Source: Lama guanicoe (lineage: Eukaryota). Taken from it: DNA of 64,000 nucleotides. Shown here in pieces: positions 1-62,600 of this stretch; within the stretch, counting starts at the first letter, position 1, and the number at the start of each line of letters is the position of its first letter. Location of the stretch: positions 772,305 through 836,304 of the forward strand of contig MU054823.1 of the NCBI GenBank assembly GCA_013239625.1, written 5' to 3'. The notes beneath the pieces are model-generated. The model was not told the origin of the DNA. It did not search any database and saw only the letters and a program-made list of their open reading frames with translations. The position numbers were made by a program, and so were the translations under genes.

Positions 1-188
1 ACTTGCGCACTCCCATCAAGGCTGAGTTCTTTGTGGTGCCGGGTATCTCCCTCAGTAGTCCCTCTATTCCTCCTTCCCTCCCAATTAAATGAAAGCTCTG
101 GCATGTAGGTATGTGGACTCTTTTCGAGGTGCCCCAAGGCCTGCGGCCCTCTTCCTGTATTGTGAAGTCCACACCCTCGGCTCCACAG

Positions 189-194
189 AATAAA
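189..194 (+). terminator. AATAAA polyadenylation signal, probably of the upstream + strand gene (HGH1 by synteny)
   Basis: AATAAA at 189-194 (also ATTAAA at 84-89). Assignment to HGH1 rests only on recalled gene order HGH1-TSSK5-MROH1; no HGH1 coding sequence is in the window. Confidence 0.4.
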
Positions 195-372
195 CGCTCC
201 ATCTGGCCTCACCCTGGCCTGCCTGCACACCCTCGTTTAACAGGTGGTGCCCAGGCAGGCTCTGGGCGGCAGACATGGAGCACAGCAACAGCGGATGCTG
301 GAGGGACCTACCCCGCTGCGCCCCACGACTGGCCTCCAAGCCCCAGAGCACCAGCCCGGCAGAGCCCCCACC

Positions 373-1621
373 TCATCTGGGGCGAGCCCCAGGGTGCTCA
401 GGCATGGAGGCACCATTGGGTAGGGTGCCCTGTTGCTGCAGACGCCGCAGTTGCCGGAGGGGCCTTGGGGCATCTGAGTCTGAGCTGGGCTCTGTGTTAT
501 CCAGAGACGCTGAGAGCTGAGACTCCTCCAGCTTCTCTGCAACCAATTGCAGTGGGACCGTCAGATGGTGGTGGGTGGGGCGCGGGAGGTGCTGAGGAGC
601 TGTTCACCTGCCTATCCTCGTGGGCCTGTCATACCTGGTACAAACCGAGCAGGGTGCAGAAGAGTACGTGCGTGGTGCTTAGCCACCTGCTGCAGGCCCA
701 GGTGCGCTTGGGGCTGCAGCTGGAGCAGGCCTCAGATCAGGCCCTGGCACTCAGTACCAAGTAGGAGCACTGGCTGTTCTGGTAGGTCTCTTGCACCTGC
801 CAGACTCCCACCCACCTGCACCTGCTGTTGCCCCAAGGAGGGGCTGTCCAGGCACCGGACTGGGGTCTCAGGATGGGGTTGGGCCCGATCATAACGGTCC
901 CTGGTGGGGAAGGGTGCAAGCCTGGAGCGGGCAGGATGGGGACAGGTTGGCCCCGGGGTCCCTTCCCACCACATTTAGGTGCTTGTAGGCAACACTGAGT
1001 GACAGGGTCTCACGGGCAGGAACTAGCGGGAGAGCCTGTGGGACCTCAGAGGTGGAGATGGCCTTGATAGCTGCTTGCAGGGATTGGGGGTGGCCCCTGT
1101 GGGGAGACCACAGTCCCTTGGGGCAGGATGCGGCGTGAGGGGCCTCTGTTCTTTGTGCTCGCTGTGGAACTTGGCTGGGCCAGGTAGGGTTGGCAGCATC
1201 TTTGGGGGCCAGCACTGACCCCCCTCATCGAAGAACTTATATGTCCGGGGCGTCCAGAAACAGAGAGTGATCAGCCTGCAGGAGGCTTGGCACTCAGGGA
1301 GGTTGTGGGACCAGGAGGGAGCCAGAGGCCCTGAGGGGTGCCTGAGTGGAGTTAGGACAGGGGCCACTGGGGCTGGGCTAGAGGGGGGGCCCATGGGGAG
1401 GAGGCAGGCCGACCTCACCATGGTACAGTGTTTGAGTCGCAGGTTAGAGGCCAGCTTTGAGTTGTGCCACATGTGCTCTCGCATGGCATAGGTCGGGCAG
1501 ACTTTGGGGAAGGCCCCAGAGCCAGTCTTCTTGGAGGAGAGCAGGTAGCCCTTGTCCCTGCATTCACGCATCTGCTCCATGAGGGTTTTCTAGTCCGGTT
1601 TTTGCTGCCACTGCCCTTCAT
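373..1621 (-). pseudogene. TSSK5: Testis-specific serine kinase 5, unitary pseudogene with introns retained
   Basis: Exon remnants: 1621-1419 (MKGSGSK..MEQMRECRDKGYLLSSKKTGSGAFPKV..KHCTM|GTGAGG); 1074-970 (AAIKAIST..RETLSLSVAYKHLNV|GTGGGA); 796-635 (VQETYQNSQCSYLVL fused to ECQGLI*GLLQLQPQAHLGLQQVA|GTATGA); 536-373 (..SLDNTEP..RPR*). These match recalled TSSK5 sequence (GYLLSSKKIGSGAFSKV, VAIK, YETYQNSQRSYLVLE, ECRDLIRGLLQL). Multiple disabling lesions are present and HRD/DFG/APE are absent. Confidence 0.88.
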
Positions 1622-3059
1622 GGAGGGCAGGGCACTGCAGAAGAGGGTGGGGCCGTCCAGTTCACTGCAGGGTCTTGGGGAGGGGGTTGGGAGGCACGGC
1701 TGAGGCCTGACTTGTGTTAGAGGGGCAGGGGTGATGGGGCTGCAGGAGGCCAGTTGCACCCCCTCAAGGCTGCTGCCCAGTTTCTGAATTCTTGCTGGGA
1801 CGGGCTGAGAGCTCAGGGTGGGAGGCTAACCCAGCCACACAAGCATGAACTGGCCTGGGGGAGGGCAGGGTCTGGGAAAGCAGGGGCAGGTTTTCGAGCC
1901 ATACCTGCATTGTGCCCTTGAAGGGGCTGTCCTGTCCCCCAGGACTTGCTTGCTCTGAAAACATCTTGCTGGAACCATTCCTGCCCTGCATGGGTCCCAC
2001 TTGGTATGGTGAGAACCCTAAGGGCTGGAGCCAGGGTGAGGCCTCTTGGGCCATGAAAGGCCTTTAAAGAAGCTGGCATGTGGGGGAGCCACTCAGCCTT
2101 CCTCAGCTGGGGAGTGAAGCTTCTGCTCAGGCTTTCCCCTGGAGCTCTCTGCACACTTGATATTTCCCCAGGCAAGCGAAGATCTGCAAGGGCCTACCTC
2201 AAACCTCCAGCTCCAGGAGGGAGGAGCCAACATGTCCCCTCCTGTCTCCTGGGCCCTGGAGTCCTGTGGGTGCTGTTATGCTGGGGAGTAGCCGCCTACT
2301 GTTTGCTGAGTGCCTGCCATGGGCCAGGTGCTGTTCAAAGCGGTCCTAGGAGCTGCAGCCGCCCCTCCTGCAGTCTGCTTTTGTTCACAGTTATGCCCCA
2401 TGTGCCTGTCCTGTGGTAGACGGTTCACACCCAGGATTTCAAATCTGAGCACCACCAAGTGATACCCCTTTTATAGATGGCACACATGGGGCCCAAATTC
2501 ATGGTATCTCTTCTGTGAGCTGGATGCACAGTGGCTGTGAGCTTGGCTTGTCTCCCCGGGATTCACGGTGGGTGAGGTATTACTCCCAGTGCAGGGAGAG
2601 CCTCAGAGTACTCGCTCGTGAACGAGTAAGACACATCTCATCCCCGCTGGATTGTGAGCTTCTTGAGAGCGGGCTTGTGTTTGATGCTCCCTTGCTCCCC
2701 TATAGCCCCGTTCTGGCAAATTGTCTGGAATATAGACAATATGGACAAACTAATTGGTTTGTTGCTGACCTGAGGTTTAGGAAAATAGAAACTGCTCCAG
2801 GTATTTCAAGCGGAGGGGCTTTAACTTGGGATAGTTACTCAGGTGTTACTTAGGCTGGAGAGTGCCATGTCTAAGCTGGAGCAGCAAAAGGGAAAACCAT
2901 GGGGCTCCGGCCAAGGGTGGCTGTGCTGTGCCCCCCTCACTTTCCTGGCTCCCACCAGTATCAGAACACAACTGGAAGCCAGTGACTGTTGCCTGGGCAG
3001 ATGACAGGCAGGATCCAGAATGATCACCAGCTCTGTCCACCTTCCTCTTCCTCTGCACC

Positions 3060-3220
3060 CTGGCTCATCCAGCTACTTCACGGCGCTTCGCTGAGTGCCT
3101 GCCAAGTACTGGGCTTGGTGCTGCGCCCTTGGGAGCAAATCACAGACGGGCCTTTCTCTCACAGAGCTTGCCGTTGTGGAAGGGAGATTAGCCTTCAGAA
3201 TTTAATCAAAGTTGAAAGAC
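3060..3220 (-). mobile_element. L2 LINE 3' fragment (ancient)
   Basis: 'ctgagtgcctgccaagtactgggcttggtgctg...ctctcacagagcttgcc' resembles the reverse complement of the L2 3' end. Other L2/MIR-like pieces lie near 2290-2350, 2640-2760, 4150-4310, 5530-5600 and 29540-29620. Confidence 0.5.
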
Positions 3221-3642
3221 GGCTGTGACCTGTGCTGGGGCAGCTTGTTTGCTTGGCGGGTGAAGAAACCGAGCTGAGGCTGGGGATGGGCAGGGCCAGC
3301 CAGCTGGGCTTGCTAGGCACTGGCCATGGGAACTAAGGGAGAGTGAGCCGTCCAGGTCCAGGTGTGAGCTTGGAAAAGGCCTCCTGCCTCCTTCCCTGGC
3401 AACTTCCACATGCCTGGGCTCACCCCTCCCCCTCCTGCCTGTGGGGAAATCTGGGGTGGGTGGGGGTGGGGCTCTTCCTGAGGGACCAGACACCATCTGC
3501 TGAGGACCGCACTCCCTTCGCCATCCGAGTTCTCTCTTTTGGTTTGAATCCCTGCAACAGAAACAGGCTGAAGCCTTTCTCTGTGAAAGAATGCCCCCAC
3601 CTCCCAGGCACTACTCAGTTGCCACCCTACCCTGGTGTTTAA

Positions 3643-3810
3643 TATTTACTTATTTACTTTTTATATTGTCTTTTTTGGGGGGGAAGGGGGAGTAATTAGG
3701 TTTACTTTTATTTATTTACTTCTTTTTAAAGGGATGTACTGGGGATTGAGCCCAGGACCTTGGGCATGCTAAGCATGCACTCTGCCACTGAGCTGAAACC
3801 TCCCGCCCCA
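3643..3810 (-). mobile_element. tRNA-derived SINE (camelid Vic-1-like)
   Basis: Reverse complement reads AGCTCAGTGGCAGAGTGCATGCTTAGCATGCCCAAGGTCCTGGGCTCAATCCCCAGTAC (A and B boxes) plus an A-rich tail. Target-site duplication GTGTTTAA at 3635-3642 and 3811-3818. Confidence 0.88.
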
Positions 3811-4399
3811 GTGTTTAAACTTATGCCCCTACTTTGCCTCCTTGCACCCCAGCCCACAGCTCTCCGCAGTCCCAGCAAGTTGCACACATCTGTTAGTGCT
3901 GCCAACCACTTACTTCTCAAATCGCTCTTTTCACTTCCTGAACTTCTGAAACACCACTCACTCCTTGATTTTTTGGTTTGTAAACATGTCCAGGCAATTT
4001 CAGCCTTGGGGCTTTGCACGTGCCAGTGTGTCTCTGCCCGCATCTCGGGCTCCTCTCTCAGCTTCTGCCTTTCTCAGCCTCTAGCTGCGACCCCTCAGAG
4101 CACTTCGTGTGGATTTTAGTCGTTTACTTGTTTATAATATGCCTCCTCCAGATTCCAAGGTCCAGAATGCAGACACCTGCTCATCTTCATTCCCACGGCC
4201 TGTTAGCAGACTGAACGTGTGCCTCCCGGGTGCACGTGTGTACCTGTTTGCAAGGACACGGTGGCCTCGGGGTCCCTGGGATGTTTGTTGGGTGTTCAGG
4301 GCGTGTTCATGAGTGAGAGATAGAGGGCATGACAGAGCCCGTGTGTGTCCAGATTGGGGGCACCTGGCGTGTGTACCTGGACAGGTATGTGTTTGCGAG

Positions 4400-5250
4400 G
4401 GGACCTGCTTTGGGCGCCTTGGCGGGCGGAACCCACGTCCCCAGTGCGTCCCGCGGTGTGTGGCGCGGGGTCTGTGTGCGGGGATCGTGGAGTGTAAGTG
4501 ACGGACCGGGACACAGCGGAATGGGACGGGGGGGGGGCCTGCTCCCGCGCCTGCGCAGTGGCCAGTCCCGCCTTGCGGCCCACACGGCGGCGGTCCTCGC
4601 GCCCAACGGTCAGGTGTGCGGGTCACTGGGCGGCTGGGGGCGGGGCCGGGCACGAGGTGGAGTTTGCGCACTCCGGCTCTCTTGGGTTCGGTGGGCGGGG
4701 CGGAGAGATCGAGAGGGAGGCCCCTCCGACCAATGAGCTCGGAGATCGGGTGGGGGCGGGGCCGGACGGCCGCAAGCCGGGCCGCGGTTGGCGGAGGGCG
4801 GCGGGTCGGGCTCGTCGCGTGGCCCCGCCCGCCCCGGTCCACGGCAGGCGGGAGGGCGGCTCCCCGGCAGCTACTGCGGCGGCCCCTCAGGTAAACGGCG
4901 GTTGGGATCTGGGGGCCGGGGCCAGGGGGCCAGGGGACGGCTGTGCTCTCTCGGGGAGGTGCCCCTCGGGGGAGCCTGGGTCGCAGACCCTTGGGCCGCC
5001 CCCTTGGCTAGGCCGCGTGGGAAGCCGAGTCAGGGGGCGCCTCTCCAAGGTCACCCGGAGAGCAAAGGGAGGGTCCCGGCGTCGCGGGGCCGAGCCCGCC
5101 CCTTCCCTGGGCTCAGGTGCGTCCAGCCCCGCGCGGAGCGGGATCTGCCGCGTCACAACCCGGAAGAGAGGCCTGGGAGCCTAGCCGGTCACATTCTTCC
5201 TGACGCCTGGTCCCCGAGTCCGTCCCCTCCCAGGGTGGGACGCGGGGCGC
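4400..5250 (+). promoter_or_regulatory. CpG-island promoter of MROH1
   Basis: Dense CpG. NRF1-type GCGCCTGCGCA at 4547-4557; GC boxes GGGGCGGGGC at 4637-4646 and 4753-4762; CCAAT at 4730-4734; ETS-type CCGGAAG at 5160-5166. No TATA box seen. Confidence 0.85.
4835..4890 (+). other. MROH1: Probable non-coding first exon of MROH1 (start approximate)
   Basis: Donor CAG|GTAAAC at 4890/4891, just downstream of the GC/CCAAT boxes in the CpG island. The TSS cannot be fixed from sequence. Confidence 0.6.
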
Positions 5251-53600: not shown

Positions 53601-56600
53601 GGTTCTGCTGCTGAGCAGTAGCATGTTTGAATGTTCGGTCTCTCCATCCAGACCCCTCTGGCCCCTCAGGAGCACGTCCTGCTTGAAGTTTTGTTGCTGT
53701 TGTCAGTGTGATTTTTTTCTCCGATTGCATTTAAAATTGCTTATTACTGCTAGGCAGAAAACTGGATTTTTGGATACTTAGAAACTGGGTAGTTTGTAAG
53801 ATTTCCTTGTTATTTCTAATAAATTTTTAATCAGGCCTCTGTAATCTTCAGATTACAGCCACTGCAGTTTACAAATCCTGAGAATTTTGCCTTCCTCCCC
53901 AGTGCTCGCATGTGTCAGTCCGCGCAGTCTTCCGGGCCGCTGCGGCCTCCCTCCTAAGTGCAGTGCTGGGTTTGGCTGGCAGCACTTACTTTCCTATCCA
54001 TTCCAGAAGCACCGGTCTGTTTATTTTAATGAGGGCTTTTATCACAGACAGACAGAGAGCTGCTGTGGTCAGACACCTTCCTCTTGTCTGTTAGGACGCT
54101 CTAGATTTCTTCTCCTGTTGGTTTTCATACGTCCACACTTCTGCCTTGTGTGGCCGGATCTGCGGGCCTCGTGATGTCCTCAGCCTCCATGCACGTGTAG
54201 ACGGGCTTTTCCCACCCAGGTTCTCTCGTGGCCTGGTTTTCATGTAACCCTAGTCCAACTCGAGTTCATTTTTGTTCATGATAAGCGAGGCAGCCAACCT
54301 CACTAAGAGGAGCAGCAGCTGGTGATCTTCACCCGGCGCTCCAACGTCCCTCCTCCTGGAAACCCCTGTGGTGACCTGGGGAGAGCAGCAGCCTGGGAGC
54401 CCTGCACTTTCTTCAGGAGCCTGTGCTGGGCAGTGGGGGCTGCAGGCGCCTCCCAAGGAAGCCTCCTGGTGGCAGTGCGGTGGGGGCAGGAAGGCCGAGG
54501 GGCGTGTGTTGTGGGGGTAACGGATGTCCCCAGGCCTGGAGTGTAGGAAGCAAGGCCAGTTGCCGAGAGCAGGGTGGGGAAGGTTCTGGGGAGAGCAGAA
54601 ACGGCTCTAAAGACAGGGCCAGGACCCAGGCAGGACAGAAGGGATTCGGTGCAGCACCCCCCGACCTGGCAGGGGATTTGCTTTTAGGGAAGGGACCCCC
54701 TCCATGTGCGTCAGCTGAACCAGCAGAGCCCGACCGTCCCCGGGCCTGCACATACCAACTTGCCCAGCCCTCTTCTCCTCTTAGGGACCCACACTTGTGG
54801 GGTGAGGGTTGACCTCCAGGGGAGGAGCTGGACGCGGGCCATGCTGGCCAAAGGGATGGACAGGGGCTGCCCTCCTGGTCACACCCCTGCCCACATCTGG
54901 GTTCAAGAGGTACAGGTGGTACCTGCCCACCCAAGTGTCCCCAGCACCCCTCCCTGGCAATCCCTCCAGTGTCCCTGCAGCACCTCCCAAATCTGCCTCT
55001 CCAGGCTCTGGTGCCCTTCCACAACCTGGGCCTCCTCGTTGGCCTCTTCTCCCCACGGTGTGCGGACCTGTGGCCTGCCACCCGCCAGGAGGCCATCAAC
55101 TGCGTCTACTCCCTCCTCTACCTCCAGCTGGGCTACGAGGGTGAGCCCCTGGCGGGGCAGAGGGGCCTGGGGGTTGAGGGAGCAGAGTCTGGGCCCCTCT
55201 CCACGCTCCCTCCTGACTCTGCAGGCTTCTCCCGGGACTACCGGGACGACGTGGCTGAGCGGCTCCTCACCCTCCAAAGTGGCCTCGTGCACCCTGACCC
55301 TGCCATCCTCTTCCACACCTGCCACAGCGTGGCCCAGGTACCTGCCGGGCCTCCACTGAGGGGAGGGACCCCGGGCCACCTCCTCGCACCTCAAGTGCTC
55401 CGTGGGCACGAGCATGGGCAGGTCTTATTCGGAGAGCTAGCTGTCTAGCACCGCCTCCATCACCCTGCTGGACTCCCGGGGGTTCACCCTAAAGGCACAC
55501 CAAGAGGGTGCAGTCAGGACCCAGGACTGGGCTCCTGGTGCCAGCGGGCGGAGAAGGCTGCCCCTAGCCCACCCTGTTAGCCCCGAGCCAGGGCAGTGCT
55601 CTTATTCCATTCGGGGTTTGAAAACAGCCCCCAGGGGTCCACAGGCTTTCTTTCCTGCAGAGGAAAGAAGGGAAGGGGGTCCACAAGGCCTCTGGGAGGG
55701 TGGACTCAGCCATTGGGAAGCAGAGACCCAGCCCTGTCCAGGCAGAGCGAGAACTTCATGTCTGGGATCAGACTTCCTGGATAGTCAACCACTTTAATGC
55801 TTTTATTTCTTCTGTGTGTGTAGGGTAGCACTTTCCCTTTATCTGCTTTGGCTCCTGGTTGCTCTCTGTTATGTGAAGGGAGCGGCAGGGGCTCTTGTCT
55901 CTGCTGGGCTGGGGGGTCCCTGCGGGTCCGGGGCGGGACATGCTCCTAGATGCCTTCGACTCTATGCTAGAGTTTTAGAGTGGCAGCATCACCCCAGCCC
56001 ACCCCACTGGTCAGCGGGAGCCTTAGGGAGGGCACTCTGTCCTGGGCCCCCAAGCTGCCCAGGGACCACTTCCAAGCAGCCTGGGCCTGGAAGCCCTGAG
56101 GCTGCATCCTGGACCTGACCAGGCTTCATCCTGGGATGGGGGGGCTCCTATGCAGGAGCTCCTGAAGGCTTGCAGAGCCTGCAAGGGGATAGGAAGCTTG
56201 GGCCCCCCAGGATGTTGTGCCTGGAAGGGACACGGACCCCTGTCCGGCCAGTCTTTCTGACACAACTGTCCTCCTAGATTATTGCCAAGCGCCTCCCGCC
56301 AGATCAACTCATCAGCCTCTTGCTAACCTTGTTTGAGGGCCTGGGAGACTCCGACAAGAACTGCTCCCGGGCCTCCACGGTCATGATCAACTGCCTGCTG
56401 AAGGAGCGGGGCAACATGCTCCTGGAGAAGGTGTGGCCAGGCTGCGCGACGGCACGCTGTGGGCGGGGCCTGACAGGAGCGTGGAGGGAGGGGCTGGGGC
56501 GTGGCGTGGGCGTGGTTATATCAGACTGGCCCAGAGTGGGTGGGCGGGGCTGGATACATGGGGGCTTAACATCCAACTCGACTCCCACCGCTCCCAGGCA

Positions 56601-59600
56601 CAAGACCCCCGCCTGGTTGGGGTTTGGCCCTCGATGCCCTGTCCCTTGTCCCTGCGGGCCTGATTTGGACAGCTCTTCCTCTCCTGTTTGAAGACAGAAT
56701 TTGGCGAAAGTAACTGCTAAGAAAGTGAAGGAGGAAAAGGCAACTGAAAAAAACGCCGGTGCTGAGGTCTGTCAGTCGCTGGTGAGGACGCAGGTCCAGA
56801 GGGTCACCACGGAGGGCCCCACAGTGGGCCTAGTCCCGAGTGGCCGTGTCCAGGATGTTCGGGTGCTGCCCGCCCTCACCCCGTCACCTGAGTCCCTCTG
56901 GCTGTGAGCTCATGTGGCTGCCCACATGTTCCCAAAGTGGCCCGGGCAGCCACTGTGTCAGATGTGCTCAGGTCCTCGTAGGTCTGGACGTGAATCCTGG
57001 CGACCCAGTTAGCCCAGGGTCCCTGTGTGCCTGGAGGGAGATATACGCTCCCTGTTAAAGTGAGGCATACCTGCAGAAAAGGGGGTTTGTCCTAAGTACA
57101 CGGCCTTGGGGGTTCCCACAGACGTGGGTTCCCACAGACGTGCAGGAGCTGAATCACCAACTCCAGAGCCCCTCGTACCCCCAGCTGACCCCCCCCCACA
57201 GGGTGCCAGCACCCCTGAAGTACAGAGTGTGGCCTGGGATGTACCTTACGGGGAAGATGCCCTCATGTCTGGCCCCGCACGGCAGTAGCCTGTGAGACCA
57301 CGTGCATTTCCTGGGCCTGGCCCAAACGTCCCTCTGTCTCCGTACGCATCACTCCTTCGTGTGTCACGCTCACTCGCTCGCCTGCTTCAGTGACCTTGGG
57401 CAGTTCCTGATCTGCACTGTCTTGAAGATGATGCCAGAGTCCAGCTCCTCTGGACCTGACAGGCATTTTGGTTGGAGACACAGCCAGGAGAGAGCCTGGG
57501 GCCTGTGGGAGAAGCCACTGTGCAGCTGTCCCAGGGCTGCCAGATGGCGTTCCAGACGGGACAGTTCTCCCACTGGCCCCACGTGAGGCTCTGGCAAGCC
57601 ACGTCCTTGCCAACACCGTTTCTGTCCTTTCTAATGGGTGTGGGGCAGCTTCACGTTAGAGCTCTGTTTGCCTTTCTCTGGTGGCTTAGGAAGTGGAACA
57701 CTTTTGCACCTTTCCTAGCTACTCAGACATCCTCTTCTGTGCAGACACCAGCCTTGCCCATTTTTCTTCTGTGCTGGCTTGTCTGTGCTTTTTTATTGGT
57801 TTGTGGAAGCACTTTTTTGTGAATATTGTGAATACAGTTCTGTAGTGGGTGTATATAGTGCAAATATTTTCTCGGCGAGGGGTGAGCAGGAGTTGCCGAT
57901 GGAGAGGAGGGGAGAGCTTGGGAGGGAGAGCCATGTGCTGATGCAGCCATGTGTGGTGTGGCACCTGGAGAGGAGGGTGTGCCTCTCGGGGCCCTCAGCC
58001 CGGGGCTGAGGGTGTGGGGGTGTCAGGCCAGTCGGACCTGGGAGTGGAAGGGGGTTGGGAAAGGAGGACGGGGAAGAGGGCACAGCTGTGATGGATAGTC
58101 AGGGTTTGATGGGTGAAGGTTTGGATTTTATTTTGCACTCAGTGGGGCTCCCAGTTCGGATCAGAATGGTGGGAAGGTGCCCTGGTGGCTCTGTGCGGGT
58201 GGAAGGGGACGGGCCAAGCTGCAAGCGGTGGCCACCGGTGGTCCCGGTGTATGTGTGTATACACTGCGTCTTCTTTACTCTCTCATCTGTCCCTGGACAC
58301 TTGTGCTGCTTCCGCCTCTTAGCTACTGTGGATGATGCTGCCGGGAACATGGCTGGATGCATATCTCCTTTAGATCCTGGCTTCTTCTGGGTAAATACCC
58401 GAAAGTGGAATTGCAGGATCACATGGCGGTTCTAGGTTGAGGTTTATGAGGACCCGCTACACGGCTTTCCATAGTGGCTGCCCAAACTGCATCTCCATGA
58501 ACGGGGCTCAAGGGCTCCGTTTCTGCGCGTCCTCGCCAGCTCTTGCTGCTGCCTGCTTTTCTGATAGTAGCGGTCCTGAGGGCTGTGAGGCGGTCTCTCA
58601 TGTTGGTTTCGACTTGTGTTTCCCCTGGAATTAGTGACGCCGAGCATCTTCCATATACTTGTCAGCCATTTGTACGTCTTCTTTGGAGGAATGTCTGTTA
58701 ATGTCCTTTGCCTGTTGTAAAATCAGGTTATTTCATTTTTTTGCTGTTGTTGAATTGTAGAAGTTCTTATATATTCTGGGTGTGACCACGTTATCAGATT
58801 TATGATTAGCAAATATTTTTTCCCATTCTGTAGGCTGCCTTTTCTGTCTTGATTGTGTCCTCTAATGCATAAAAGGTTTTAAAGTTTGATATAGTCCCAT
58901 ATGTCTGGGTTTTTTGAGGGGGAGGTAATTAGGTTTATTTACTTTCTTATTTATTTAATTGAGGTACTGGGGACTGAACCCAGGACCTTGTGCATGCTAA
59001 GCACGTGCTGTACCTCTGAGCGCCACCCTCCCCCCATGTCTGTTTCTGCTGCTTGTTTCTTGTGCTTTGGGTGTCACATCCGAGAAATCACTGCCAAGTC
59101 TAATGTCCTGAGGATTTTCCCCTGTTTTCTTCTAGGAGTTTCCTAATACTTTTGAGTCCCACCCACCCATTCTTGGTAAATCCAGGTGCTTCTCCCTGGG
59201 CCCAGCATCCTGAGGTGGATGCTGGCCTCTTGGAGCTGTGGGTCTTCTCCAGATCCACTCACAGACACTCTCAGCACCCCACTTAGGGGTGCTGTCCCTG
59301 AGCCTCACCTGGCGCCTGCCTGCAGCTCTCAAGTGACCTGGACGCTGGCATCCGGCCCCATGGGGGTCATGGCGGGCCACCGTTTTCTCTCCTGTCCTGA
59401 GAGGCTCTGGCAGCCAGCCTGTTGAGACACCTGGCCACTGTTGGACTTTGAATTCCTCTGAGATCAAATCAGAGAGGGGGTCCTAGCAGGTGAGCTGTTA
59501 CTGGACTGAGCCCCCTCCCCAGCACGCCGTGGTTGTAGAGGACAACGGTCTGGCAAGACCGTCCCTCCCAGGTTGGGAGGCAGGAGGAGCGTGCAGGGGA

Positions 59601-62600
59601 CGTGCAGGGGAACAGGAAAGGATAGACCGAAACAGACAGGTGGGAGGAAAATGGAGCCACCGCCGTAGAGCCATCCTGACAGAGGCTAAAAGTCGCCACA
59701 CGACCCGCAGTTCTGCTCCTGGTAGCCAAGGGGGTCGGCACCATGCCTCCAAACCCTGAACGTGCACGCGCCTGGCAGCCCCGCAGTAGAAACAACCCCA
59801 AGCCCATCAGTGAATGGGTCAGTAAACAGTGAACACGGTCTGTCTGTCCAGTGAGACCCGCCTCCATTTGGCGGCAAAAGGGAGTGACGTACTTGCACCG
59901 GCCACAACCAGGAGGGGCCCTGAAATCATTCGGCAAATTGAAAAAGACTAGCTCTGTCTCGGTTCAGAAGGAACACAGAGTCAGGCTGCTTCCGGGCACT
60001 TTGAAAGGGACGCACGGAGGCCAACACGACACAGCAGAAAGGGGAGAAGCCATTGAAGCAATTAGGAAGAGCCTCGGAAAGATGTGTCTTAGGAAAAGAA
60101 CCAATGCCAGAAAAAGCAAAAATGCAAAGTGAAGAAGAGGGGAAGTACACACACAAGAGGTTTGAAATACTGTGAGGCACGTCTATGAGCAGCTGTGCCC
60201 CAAGCACTGGACGCCCTCTGGTAAAAGGATGGGTCCCTGAGGATGTTGCTCCCACCCACATCAGTGCAGTGGGAAGTCACAAAGGTGACCAAGCCCCCTG
60301 GCCCTCAGCCAGGAGAGTGGAGGGGAGCCAGGCGCCCCCCTCCCAGGAGACGGTCTGTCCAATTTCAGTGGTGACCGTGGGTGGAATGTCCTGGCCCATC
60401 TGTCTGTGGACATCCCTGCTCTTGAGTGTGACGAGCAAGACCCACTCAGCCACTGCCAAGCGTGCTGGTTCAGCACCACCTCCTGCCAGCGCCCCCTGAG
60501 TGGGAACAGGCCTGCGCAGCTGCCTGGAGACTCCGACTGAGGCTGGGGTCCTCCCTCCCAGCCCAGCTCCGCCTCAGCCTGGGCACAGTGCCCCTCCCTG
60601 TCCCCTCCCAGCACACTGCTCCCCTCCATGCTCACCAGGCAGAGGTGGGGCGGGCGCTGTGGGCCTCTAGTGGCCAGAGGCTGGGTCACCCTGGAAGCCT
60701 CAGTGCTCATGCCAGTGGCCTTCCCTCCTGGCTCTGCTCTGCACAAGCCCCTCCTCCCAGCAGGTCCCTCCTGGGCTCCTGTCACTTGCCACGTGGGTCT
60801 GGGCCTGTGTCCCAGCACCAAGATCCCAGGGCTCTGGCTCCAGCTCTGCTCTCAGGGACCACCCTCCCCCCCAGGCCCCCTGCACCCTGGCCATGTGAGG
60901 TTGGCTCCTGGCATGGGTGAGTGCACTGCAGGCCTGACCACCCAGCCCGTCACCTGCAGGTGCCCGAGATCATGAGCGTGCTGCGCTCCAAGCTGCAGGA
61001 GACCCGGGAGGAGCACGTCCTGCAGGCCGCGCAGCACAGTGTGTACCTTCTGGCGAGCCAGCACCGCGCCGCTGTTGTGTCCAGCCTCCTGGGCAGCCCC
61101 CTGCCCTTTGACAGGTACCCAGTGCCCACCAGCCTGCTGGGGTGGACGGGGGTCCCTCCTGCCCAGCGTGGTGCTCTTGTGCCCCCAGCCCCCACCCGTC
61201 CCTGCGTCCCAGCTCCTCTGCATAGAGCCTACGGGCCCCAGTTGGGGTGGTTGTGCCTGCCTTGTCTGTGGGCCCGAGGCTGCTCCCATGGCCCTGGGTT
61301 TCAGTGGGCACCCTTGGCTCGCTCCTGGCTCTGCTGACCAGTGCTCCAGCTGGTTTTCTTCAGGGCGTCCACCACCACCTGTGAGCAGAACCCTGGGGCC
61401 AGGCCCCCCTTCCAATCAGAAAGGGTCCCCATCCTGCACTCCCAGCTCTGAGCTTGCCGACCTCAGTTCCAAATGGCAGGACTTCGTCCCCTGGGGCTTC
61501 TGCACCAAAGCCTCCAGGTGGCCACTGCCTGCTGTTCCTGCCTTTCTCTGCTGTCCATGTCGTGGGTGGAGGCTGGCATGCTGGGGAGGCGAGGTGGCAC
61601 GTCACTTCACTGCAGCTCTGGCCCCGGTGGCCCCGACGTGCCTGCTCTTGCTGTCAAGACATGGGCTCGTGCTGCAGGCTTTCCTCTCGCTTAGATGCTG
61701 GGCGCCACTCAGGGCCCCGGGTTCACTGTCCACACCCTCCTCTCCAGGGACCCTCTGTGCCAAGTGCACGGAGAGCGTTTGCCTGGGGTCTTCCCCGCCG
61801 CCCGTCGCTGTCAGTCTTTCCTTGCCCTGGCACCGCGGACGCGCTCCTCGGTGGTGACTTCTGCGTCCTACAGCGTTGCTGGTCGGCTTAAACCCGCTGT
61901 GGTGCTTTGTGTCTGCTCTTGGTCTCACGTGTCTTTCTTTCTTTACCTTCTTTCTTGTCTCTTCTTTAGATTTACAGGATCTTTTTCACAACTTCACATT
62001 TCCCCTCAGTTTATCGGGTAGCTATGCACTCTGTTCTCCTGGTGGTCGCCTGGAGAAGGGCTGCGTGCAGGCGCCCCTGGGCAGCAGGGTCTCCTGACTG
62101 GGGAGCCGGGGCTCTTCTGCCCCGGCCCATCATGACCGCGGCCGCCTGTGCGGTGGGATCTACCCACCACCCCCGCTGGGCCCTGCGTGCCTCCCCGCGC
62201 GTCCCTCTCCCAGAGGAGCACACAGGCCACCAGTGGGCCCTGGGGGGACCTATGACAGGAAGATGGGTGAACTTTGTCAGGGACACAATGGGGGCTGGTC
62301 CCTGAGCCAGTGACATGCGGGTTGGTAAAAGACTTTACCAGAGATAAAATAGGAGAACAGAGGAGGAGTGTATTAGGTCACACTGCCATGGGCAACAGCG
62401 GCTGCAGGCTATTGGGTCCGAGGCCACCTTTATCCTGTAACTGCAGAGACCTGGGCGGGCAGTCTGGGCACGGCGGGGTCCTGGGCGGGGTCCTGCCAGG
62501 CGTGGGCACCAGTCTCCTCGATCTCCAACTCACACTTCCGGCGGGAGCACAGCCCTGGAGCCCACGCAGGGCCCGCGGGCCGCAGCCTCCCCGCCCTGTG

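Follow-up and report, generated by a model that had tools for sequence, protein, structure and literature searches.

The closest described counterpart of the locus analysed here is the human pseudogene TSSK5P (TSSK5P1, 8q24.3), which is listed as a unitary pseudogene (PMC2864566) and was reportedly lost in catarrhines 42.9-30.5 million years ago (PMC2864566, PMC7401350). Like the camelid gene described below, TSSK5P is intron-bearing, dead at its own locus and, as these sources present it, without a working copy; unlike the camelid gene, which carries a codon-6 frameshift and a core deletion and belongs to another lineage, it stays open for 101 codons and is then stopped (PMC2864566, PMC7401350). 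A review proposes that TSSK1B replaced TSSK5 in primates (PMC7401350), whereas no extra TSSK1-like copy was found among the scored candidates from the camelid genome. The same review names Tssk1, 2, 3, 4 and 6 as post-meiotic and describes mouse TSSK5 as possibly inactive (PMC7401350), and mouse TSSK5 is called putatively non-functional in two further sources (PMC12024862; PMC12419092). Another source gives knockouts for Tssk1/2, 3, 4 and 6 only (PMC10164148), and TSSK5 has also served as an old name of TSSK4 (PMC9982321).

Intact TSSK5 is a testis kinase of the CAMK group (Pfam PF00069). The genes of mouse (P0046), cattle (P0006), deer (P0001) and horse (P0173) have an exon order, exon boundaries and TSSK5-specific sequence like those of the camelid remnant, and intact orthologs keep the glycine loop, VAIK, the alphaC Glu, HRDLKCEN, DFG, APE and DLW; of these motifs, only the codons of the VAIK (beta3) lysine and the alphaC Glu, both in exon 2, survive in the camelid. 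Cetacean and felid sequences, known from gene models alone, resemble the camelid gene in that core catalytic motifs are changed or absent, but they do not have the camelid deletion, and two of the whales are less decayed (20-23 private residues versus 32). The window analysed here is a stretch of 64,000 nucleotides from the guanaco, Lama guanicoe (assembly GCA_013239625.1, contig MU054823.1, positions 772,305 to 836,304, forward strand). A preliminary description of positions 373 to 1,621 had proposed TSSK5 as an old unitary pseudogene, possibly lost independently of the human gene. The analysis makes it very probable that TSSK5 is present here as a single broken copy, the only one found, in its normal place and with its core deleted, and that it died on the camelid stem before the split between Old World and New World lineages, independently of the loss in humans.

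The TSSK5 remnant

The remains of TSSK5 occupy window positions 235-1621 on the minus strand, as determined by direct reading of that strand and by protein alignment (Table 1). With X placed at the breaks, the exon 1-3 remnant aligns with horse, cattle and mouse TSSK5 at 59-64% over 121 aa (134-141 bits; 64% and 141 bits for horse) versus just 22-26 bits for TSSK1, TSSK2 and TSSK6 of the same genome. The remnant is closer to TSSK5 than to other TSSKs, and the match is far beyond chance. Its boundaries after residues 68, 104 and 318 coincide with those of ortholog genomic ORFs, the exon numbers being provisional, and introns 1, 2 and 7 are retained, so the remnant is not a processed copy.

Table 1. 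Coordinates of the TSSK5 remnant and its neighbours (window positions)
Feature	Position	Strand	Basis
HGH1-type gene (DUF383)	just before window (L014)		domain match
Last exon remnant, C-terminal tail	235-536	-	alignment; TGA 375-373 inside
Exon 7 remnant, ECQ..LIRGLL	635-751	-	direct reading, alignment
Large-deletion junction	751-752	-	alignment, ortholog ORFs; bridged without gap in four DNA contigs and two contigs of the relative
Exon 3 5' stub, VQ..ETYQNSQCSYLVL, codons 105-121	752-796	-	direct reading, alignment, ortholog ORFs
Exon 2 remnant, codons 69-104	970-1074	-	direct reading, protein alignment
Exon-2 acceptor, dead (CAA for CAG)	1075-1077	-	direct reading
Exon 1 remnant, codons 1-68	1419-1621	-	direct reading; boundary after residue 68 from ortholog genomic ORFs
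Three Maestro-HEAT (MROH-family) exons, likely MROH1 by position	54990-61118	+	HEAT_Maestro domain

All of the lesions in the preliminary description were recovered at the places given when the minus strand was read. Exon 1 (TGSGAFPKVCPT) has lost 1 nt in codon 6 (about 1605-1606), and ATG 1621 lies 41 nt from, and frameshifted against, the second ATG at 1580 that begins MEQ; the TAG that had been placed near 1590-1592 is present at 1592-1590, and the glycine loop has drifted as described, with invariant residues changed, while the donor GT is still intact at 1418-1417. The acceptor of exon 2 does read CTGCAA, and other AGs lie close by at 1098-1097 and 1072-1071. The paired indels reported for exon 2 are a loss of 2 nt at 1038-1035 and a loss of 1 nt at 1013-1012. 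Between both lies the reported TAG 1025-1023, which is present but ends translation only if read in the ancestral frame or via a cryptic acceptor at 1070, and is read through when exon 2 is entered at the old acceptor. Exon 7 carries TGA 734-732 and a donor GT at 634-633. Additional lesions in exons 3 and 7, called by eye against the orthologs and all absent from the preliminary description, comprise an in-frame 6-nt loss at 790/791 in the exon 3 stub and a 15-nt loss at 671/672 together with losses of 2 and 1 nt near the end of exon 7. Homology to the tail of deer TSSK5 extends beyond 373 to about 235.

Upstream, at about 3700-3815 (minus strand), there is a short SINE, tRNA-like and A-rich in its tail, between TSSK5 and a CpG island at about 4400-5200.

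Loss of the catalytic core

The preliminary description had not listed a large deletion, by which exon 3 (SYLVL) is fused directly to exon 7 (ECQ). Residues about 122-273 of bovine and deer TSSK5 (about 152 codons) have no counterpart in the window; the deletion takes about 457 coding bases, namely codons 122-273 and one base of codon 274, and shifts the frame, its breakpoints and length being derived from protein comparison with the orthologs. The HRD, DFG, APE and DLWSLG motifs are deleted along with three or four introns (ortholog introns follow residues 172, 190, about 235, which is the least sure, and 273, besides 68, 104 and 318), and the locus is left without the HRD-x-K-x-x-N, DFG and APE motifs of an active protein kinase (PF00069). 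Of the 177 kinase positions that are invariant in 14 intact orthologs, 95 fall inside the deletion. None of eight combinations of start and splice sites gave a product with HRD, DFG or APE, the longest product being 129 aa, and a six-frame motif scan for displaced catalytic exons across window positions 1-4500 and the adjoining L014 met isolated chance triplets only. The TSSK5 locus cannot encode a kinase. Metagenome contigs were also tried as a source of intact-ortholog DNA and were rejected (50 pattern matches, one locus, L015, with an unrelated kinase at 27%).

Genomic context and copy number

The remnant is syntenic, with the HGH1-type gene on one side and the MROH-type gene on the other; the human gene order is HGH1-TSSK5P-MROH1. 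A DNA search of the genome assembly returned the TSSK5 locus as its one match. Protein searches of this fragmented assembly, in which the best 100 of 335 and the best 150 of 373 candidates were scored, gave TSSK1, 2, 3 and 6 and other kinases as the first matches to whole deer TSSK5, and 55 matches to the deleted stretch of the bovine protein, all to other kinases at no more than 60% identity and none on this contig. Exons of TSSK4 are present in the genome and are open across the matched parts. Among the best 120 of 135 and the best 120 of 1,312 protein matches and the listed members of 20 clusters, no camelid TSSK5 protein was found, nor any from pig or hippo. With a single copy found, in the syntenic place and with no route to a kinase, the proposal of a unitary pseudogene is upheld.

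TSSK1 of this genome is identical to a Vicugna pacos record, unlike Camelus records, which agrees with the camelid source that had been deduced from the SINEs. The TSSK1 gene (L002:1399-2664, plus strand) encodes 421 aa here and in the Camelus records, while TSSK1 of whales and bats in the same cluster has 365-371 aa, the camelids sharing a C-terminal extension of about 55 aa. Elsewhere, L009:892-2331 (plus strand) holds an intronless open frame of 479 codons that resembles an AKT kinase and is likely a retrocopy with an intact frame.

Age of the loss

Four RNA-type runs, in the form of contigs, contain the locus from a relative that differs from the window at 95 of 2,353 letters in X15 (4.0%). 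Old World camels are the only living group known at that distance, and judged from the divergence alone the relative is likely an Old World camel, Camelus. The deletion junction is bridged without a gap in X15 record 1 (1-796) and X20 record 19 (518-803), the short sides of these contigs measuring 45 and 52 letters. The relative also has the exon-1 frameshift (bridged by X15 record 5 and X17 record 10), the exon-2 indels (X15 record 3 and X20 record 21) and the 15-nt loss in exon 7 (two contigs), as well as TAG 1592, the last being read only from row order among the differences listed. Because the relative has the deletion, the frameshift of exon 1 and the indels of exon 2 as well, the loss likely predates the camel-llama split, and the shared lesions set its minimum age at the Camelini-Lamini split, which one source gives as 11-25 million years (PMC4884201).

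Not all of the decay is old. At both 734-732 and 375-373 the relative has CGA where the window has TGA, and it retains D277 and R116; since the relative has the older state, the two stops and the changes at D277 and R116 are young. The TGA within LIRGLL is thus present as had been described, but it is late decay and not a cause of the loss. Likewise, the great age that had been argued from the number of lesions holds on other grounds, namely the lesions shared with the 4%-divergent relative, and not on the count, as some of the stops listed are young. Indels have also changed the presumed promoter region: upstream of the start codon, the relative is longer by 25, 13 and 3 bases at window positions 1801, 2048 and 2157.

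In exons 3, 7 and 8, non-synonymous differences between the window and the relative affect 14 codons (about 267 sites) and synonymous ones 4 codons (about 96 sites), with 7/7/6 at the three codon positions; the numbers are small and include exon 8, which is weakly conserved even in intact TSSK5 genes. The differences between the lineages look neutral, as expected without selection. Over the 67 codons for which differences of the relative are listed, seven derived residues are shared, two of them by row order among these differences only, while five occur only in the window and three only in the relative. Of 144 aligned codons, 32 encode a residue in the window that is absent from all 14 intact orthologs, which have 2-17 such private residues each; the window also departs from the orthologs at 21 of 76 positions that are otherwise invariant. 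From the 15 counted changes and the 32 private residues, decay may roughly be taken to have lasted some 2.7-3.7 times as long as the two lineages have been separate (95% interval, about 1.4-8.6 times). With the camel-llama split put at 16 million years, decay would have started roughly 45-60 million years ago, on the early camelid or tylopod stem.

TSSK5 in other mammals

Database models of TSSK5 from mammals (57, picked by hand from the matches) were scored for the core kinase motifs, all of which are kept in 35 models, including those of ruminants, horse, dog, several bats, colugo, rodents, afrotherians, marsupials and platypus. The intact motifs in ruminant, horse, dog, bat, colugo and rodent models bear out the suggestion that the camelid loss is independent of the human one. 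The mouse model keeps every core motif; the statement that mouse TSSK5 may be inactive reportedly goes back to Li et al. 2011. The 22 models that fail the core motifs include all five cetacean, all five felid and both New World monkey models, besides those of Pteropus, Rhinolophus, grey seal, meerkat, striped hyena, blind mole-rat and Chinese hamster, and those of Galeopterus, Myodes and Condylura, which look like model gaps.

In the cetacean models (P0084, P0097, P0111, P0122, P0245), HRD and APE are absent or altered, and four substitutions at sites that are otherwise invariant (L28P, P80S, P217L and F267L) are common to gray whale and vaquita, which suggests, as far as database models can, a separate loss of TSSK5 on the whale stem. 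The felid models (P0081, P0382, P0052, P0096, P0108) are likely inactive kinases, DFG being YFG in the cat and Panthera showing HRDLE and APD. The models of titi and tamarin (P0236, P0297) look frameshifted or partial, although the review states that TSSK5 is present in New World monkeys (PMC7401350).

Alternative explanations

Several readings would leave TSSK5 alive, in this locus or beyond it. Errors of assembly or base calling in an intact gene might be feared in an assembly broken into 55,231 contigs, but 14 runs with four organism labels carry at least 0.93 of the locus's words, and in all four DNA runs compared (one per label and study) positions 1-2200 lie in a single contig that differs from the window by 1-3 letters and by no indel. 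The runs carry a flag of near-identity, and the window itself may stem from one of them; nonetheless, every indel is kept in four studies, and the deletion and frameshifts recur in the 4%-divergent relative, so that reads lacking the lesions, named beforehand as grounds for doubt, did not appear, the main lesions are fixed and not private, and error is barely conceivable. The locus could also be a decayed duplicate of a working TSSK5 elsewhere in the genome, the other ground for doubt, given that the genome searches score only the best part of their candidates. However, this is extremely unlikely in view of the one DNA match, the best protein matches being to TSSK1, 2, 3, 4 and 6 and other kinases with no second copy among the candidates scored, the absence of camelid TSSK5 from the protein matches and cluster members listed, and the position of an intron-bearing locus between HGH1-type and MROH-type genes. 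Finally, the remnant might have been retained in a new role, either as a short peptide of the N-lobe or within a transcript that is non-coding or an extension of HGH1. In favour of this, an open frame of 54 codons begins at ATG 1580, the indel pairs in exon 2 and exon 7 each total -3, splicing to a cryptic acceptor at 1096 would bring ATG 1621 back into frame (129 aa), and much of the locus is covered by RNA-type contigs from the relative. Long contigs of this type (3,151 and 2,040 nt) cross window positions 1-796 from before the window and are possibly HGH1 read-through, or DNA. None of the four RNA-type runs of the relative, whose contigs are not known to be from testis and may hold DNA, contained a spliced joint, and the 54-aa frame of exon 1 had no match in Pfam. 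The even spread of between-lineage changes over the three codon positions and the changed invariant residues of the glycine loop and beta strand speak against such a use, which is very unlikely.

Two further alternatives concern how and when the gene was broken. The 3' end of the deletion lies within about 1 nt of the start of exon 7, as would be expected if the locus had recombined with a reverse-transcribed, mis-spliced mRNA instead of being rejoined as DNA. Intact orthologs, however, continue the 5' side with a Glu codon (GAR) and no GT or GC donor, and introns 1, 2 and 7 are still present, which makes this route highly improbable; as no splice donor stands on the 5' side, the placement near the exon start is probably chance, and the deletion would have arisen by ordinary end-joining, with a microhomology of no more than 1-3 nt. 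The broken appearance of all five cetacean models might likewise be taken for one older loss common to camelids and whales. Ruminants are closer to whales than camelids are, and they keep intact models; moreover, the whale models retain part of residues 122-273 and share only 1 of the 32 window-private residues. The chance of a common loss is accordingly next to nil, and a loss confined to the camelid stem remains the preferred reading.

Conclusions

TSSK5 of the guanaco is a real and old unitary pseudogene, and represents a second loss of TSSK5 that is unreported as far as the literature was searched. That search lay outside subscription journals and supplements and found no camelid or cetacean TSSK5 loss; human-referenced gene-loss screens presumably cannot see TSSK5, whereas the camelid loss may already stand in NCBI pseudogene annotation or in gene-loss tables that take mouse as their reference. 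For the course of events, we infer that TSSK5 came under relaxed selection along the camelid stem, that the deletion and the small indels then accumulated, in whichever order, and that CpG-type changes added the late stops. Redundancy would be the likeliest reason that the loss was tolerated, because the other five TSSKs (1, 2, 3, 4, 6) remain.

Taken alone, another loss of a testis gene in camelids is an ordinary event. TSSK5 is, however, the one TSSK without a knockout phenotype in the literature searched, where it is described as lost only in primates, and its loss in camelids, with no extra TSSK copy found, means that a mammal can stay fertile lacking TSSK5 and weakens the idea that TSSK5 was replaced by TSSK1B. 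The balance tips slightly towards a broader view, in which a gene conserved from fish to most mammals has been discarded repeatedly, in catarrhines, in stem camelids and separately in cetaceans, felids, some bats, New World monkeys and perhaps pigs, each time without a replacement paralog. If this is true, the published idea of replacement by TSSK1B would be undone, and five or more natural knockouts would be available for the role of TSSK5 in sperm. Together with the broken-looking whale and cat models, the camelid loss would allow a comparative test of which sperm trait, substrate or partner gene goes with TSSK5.
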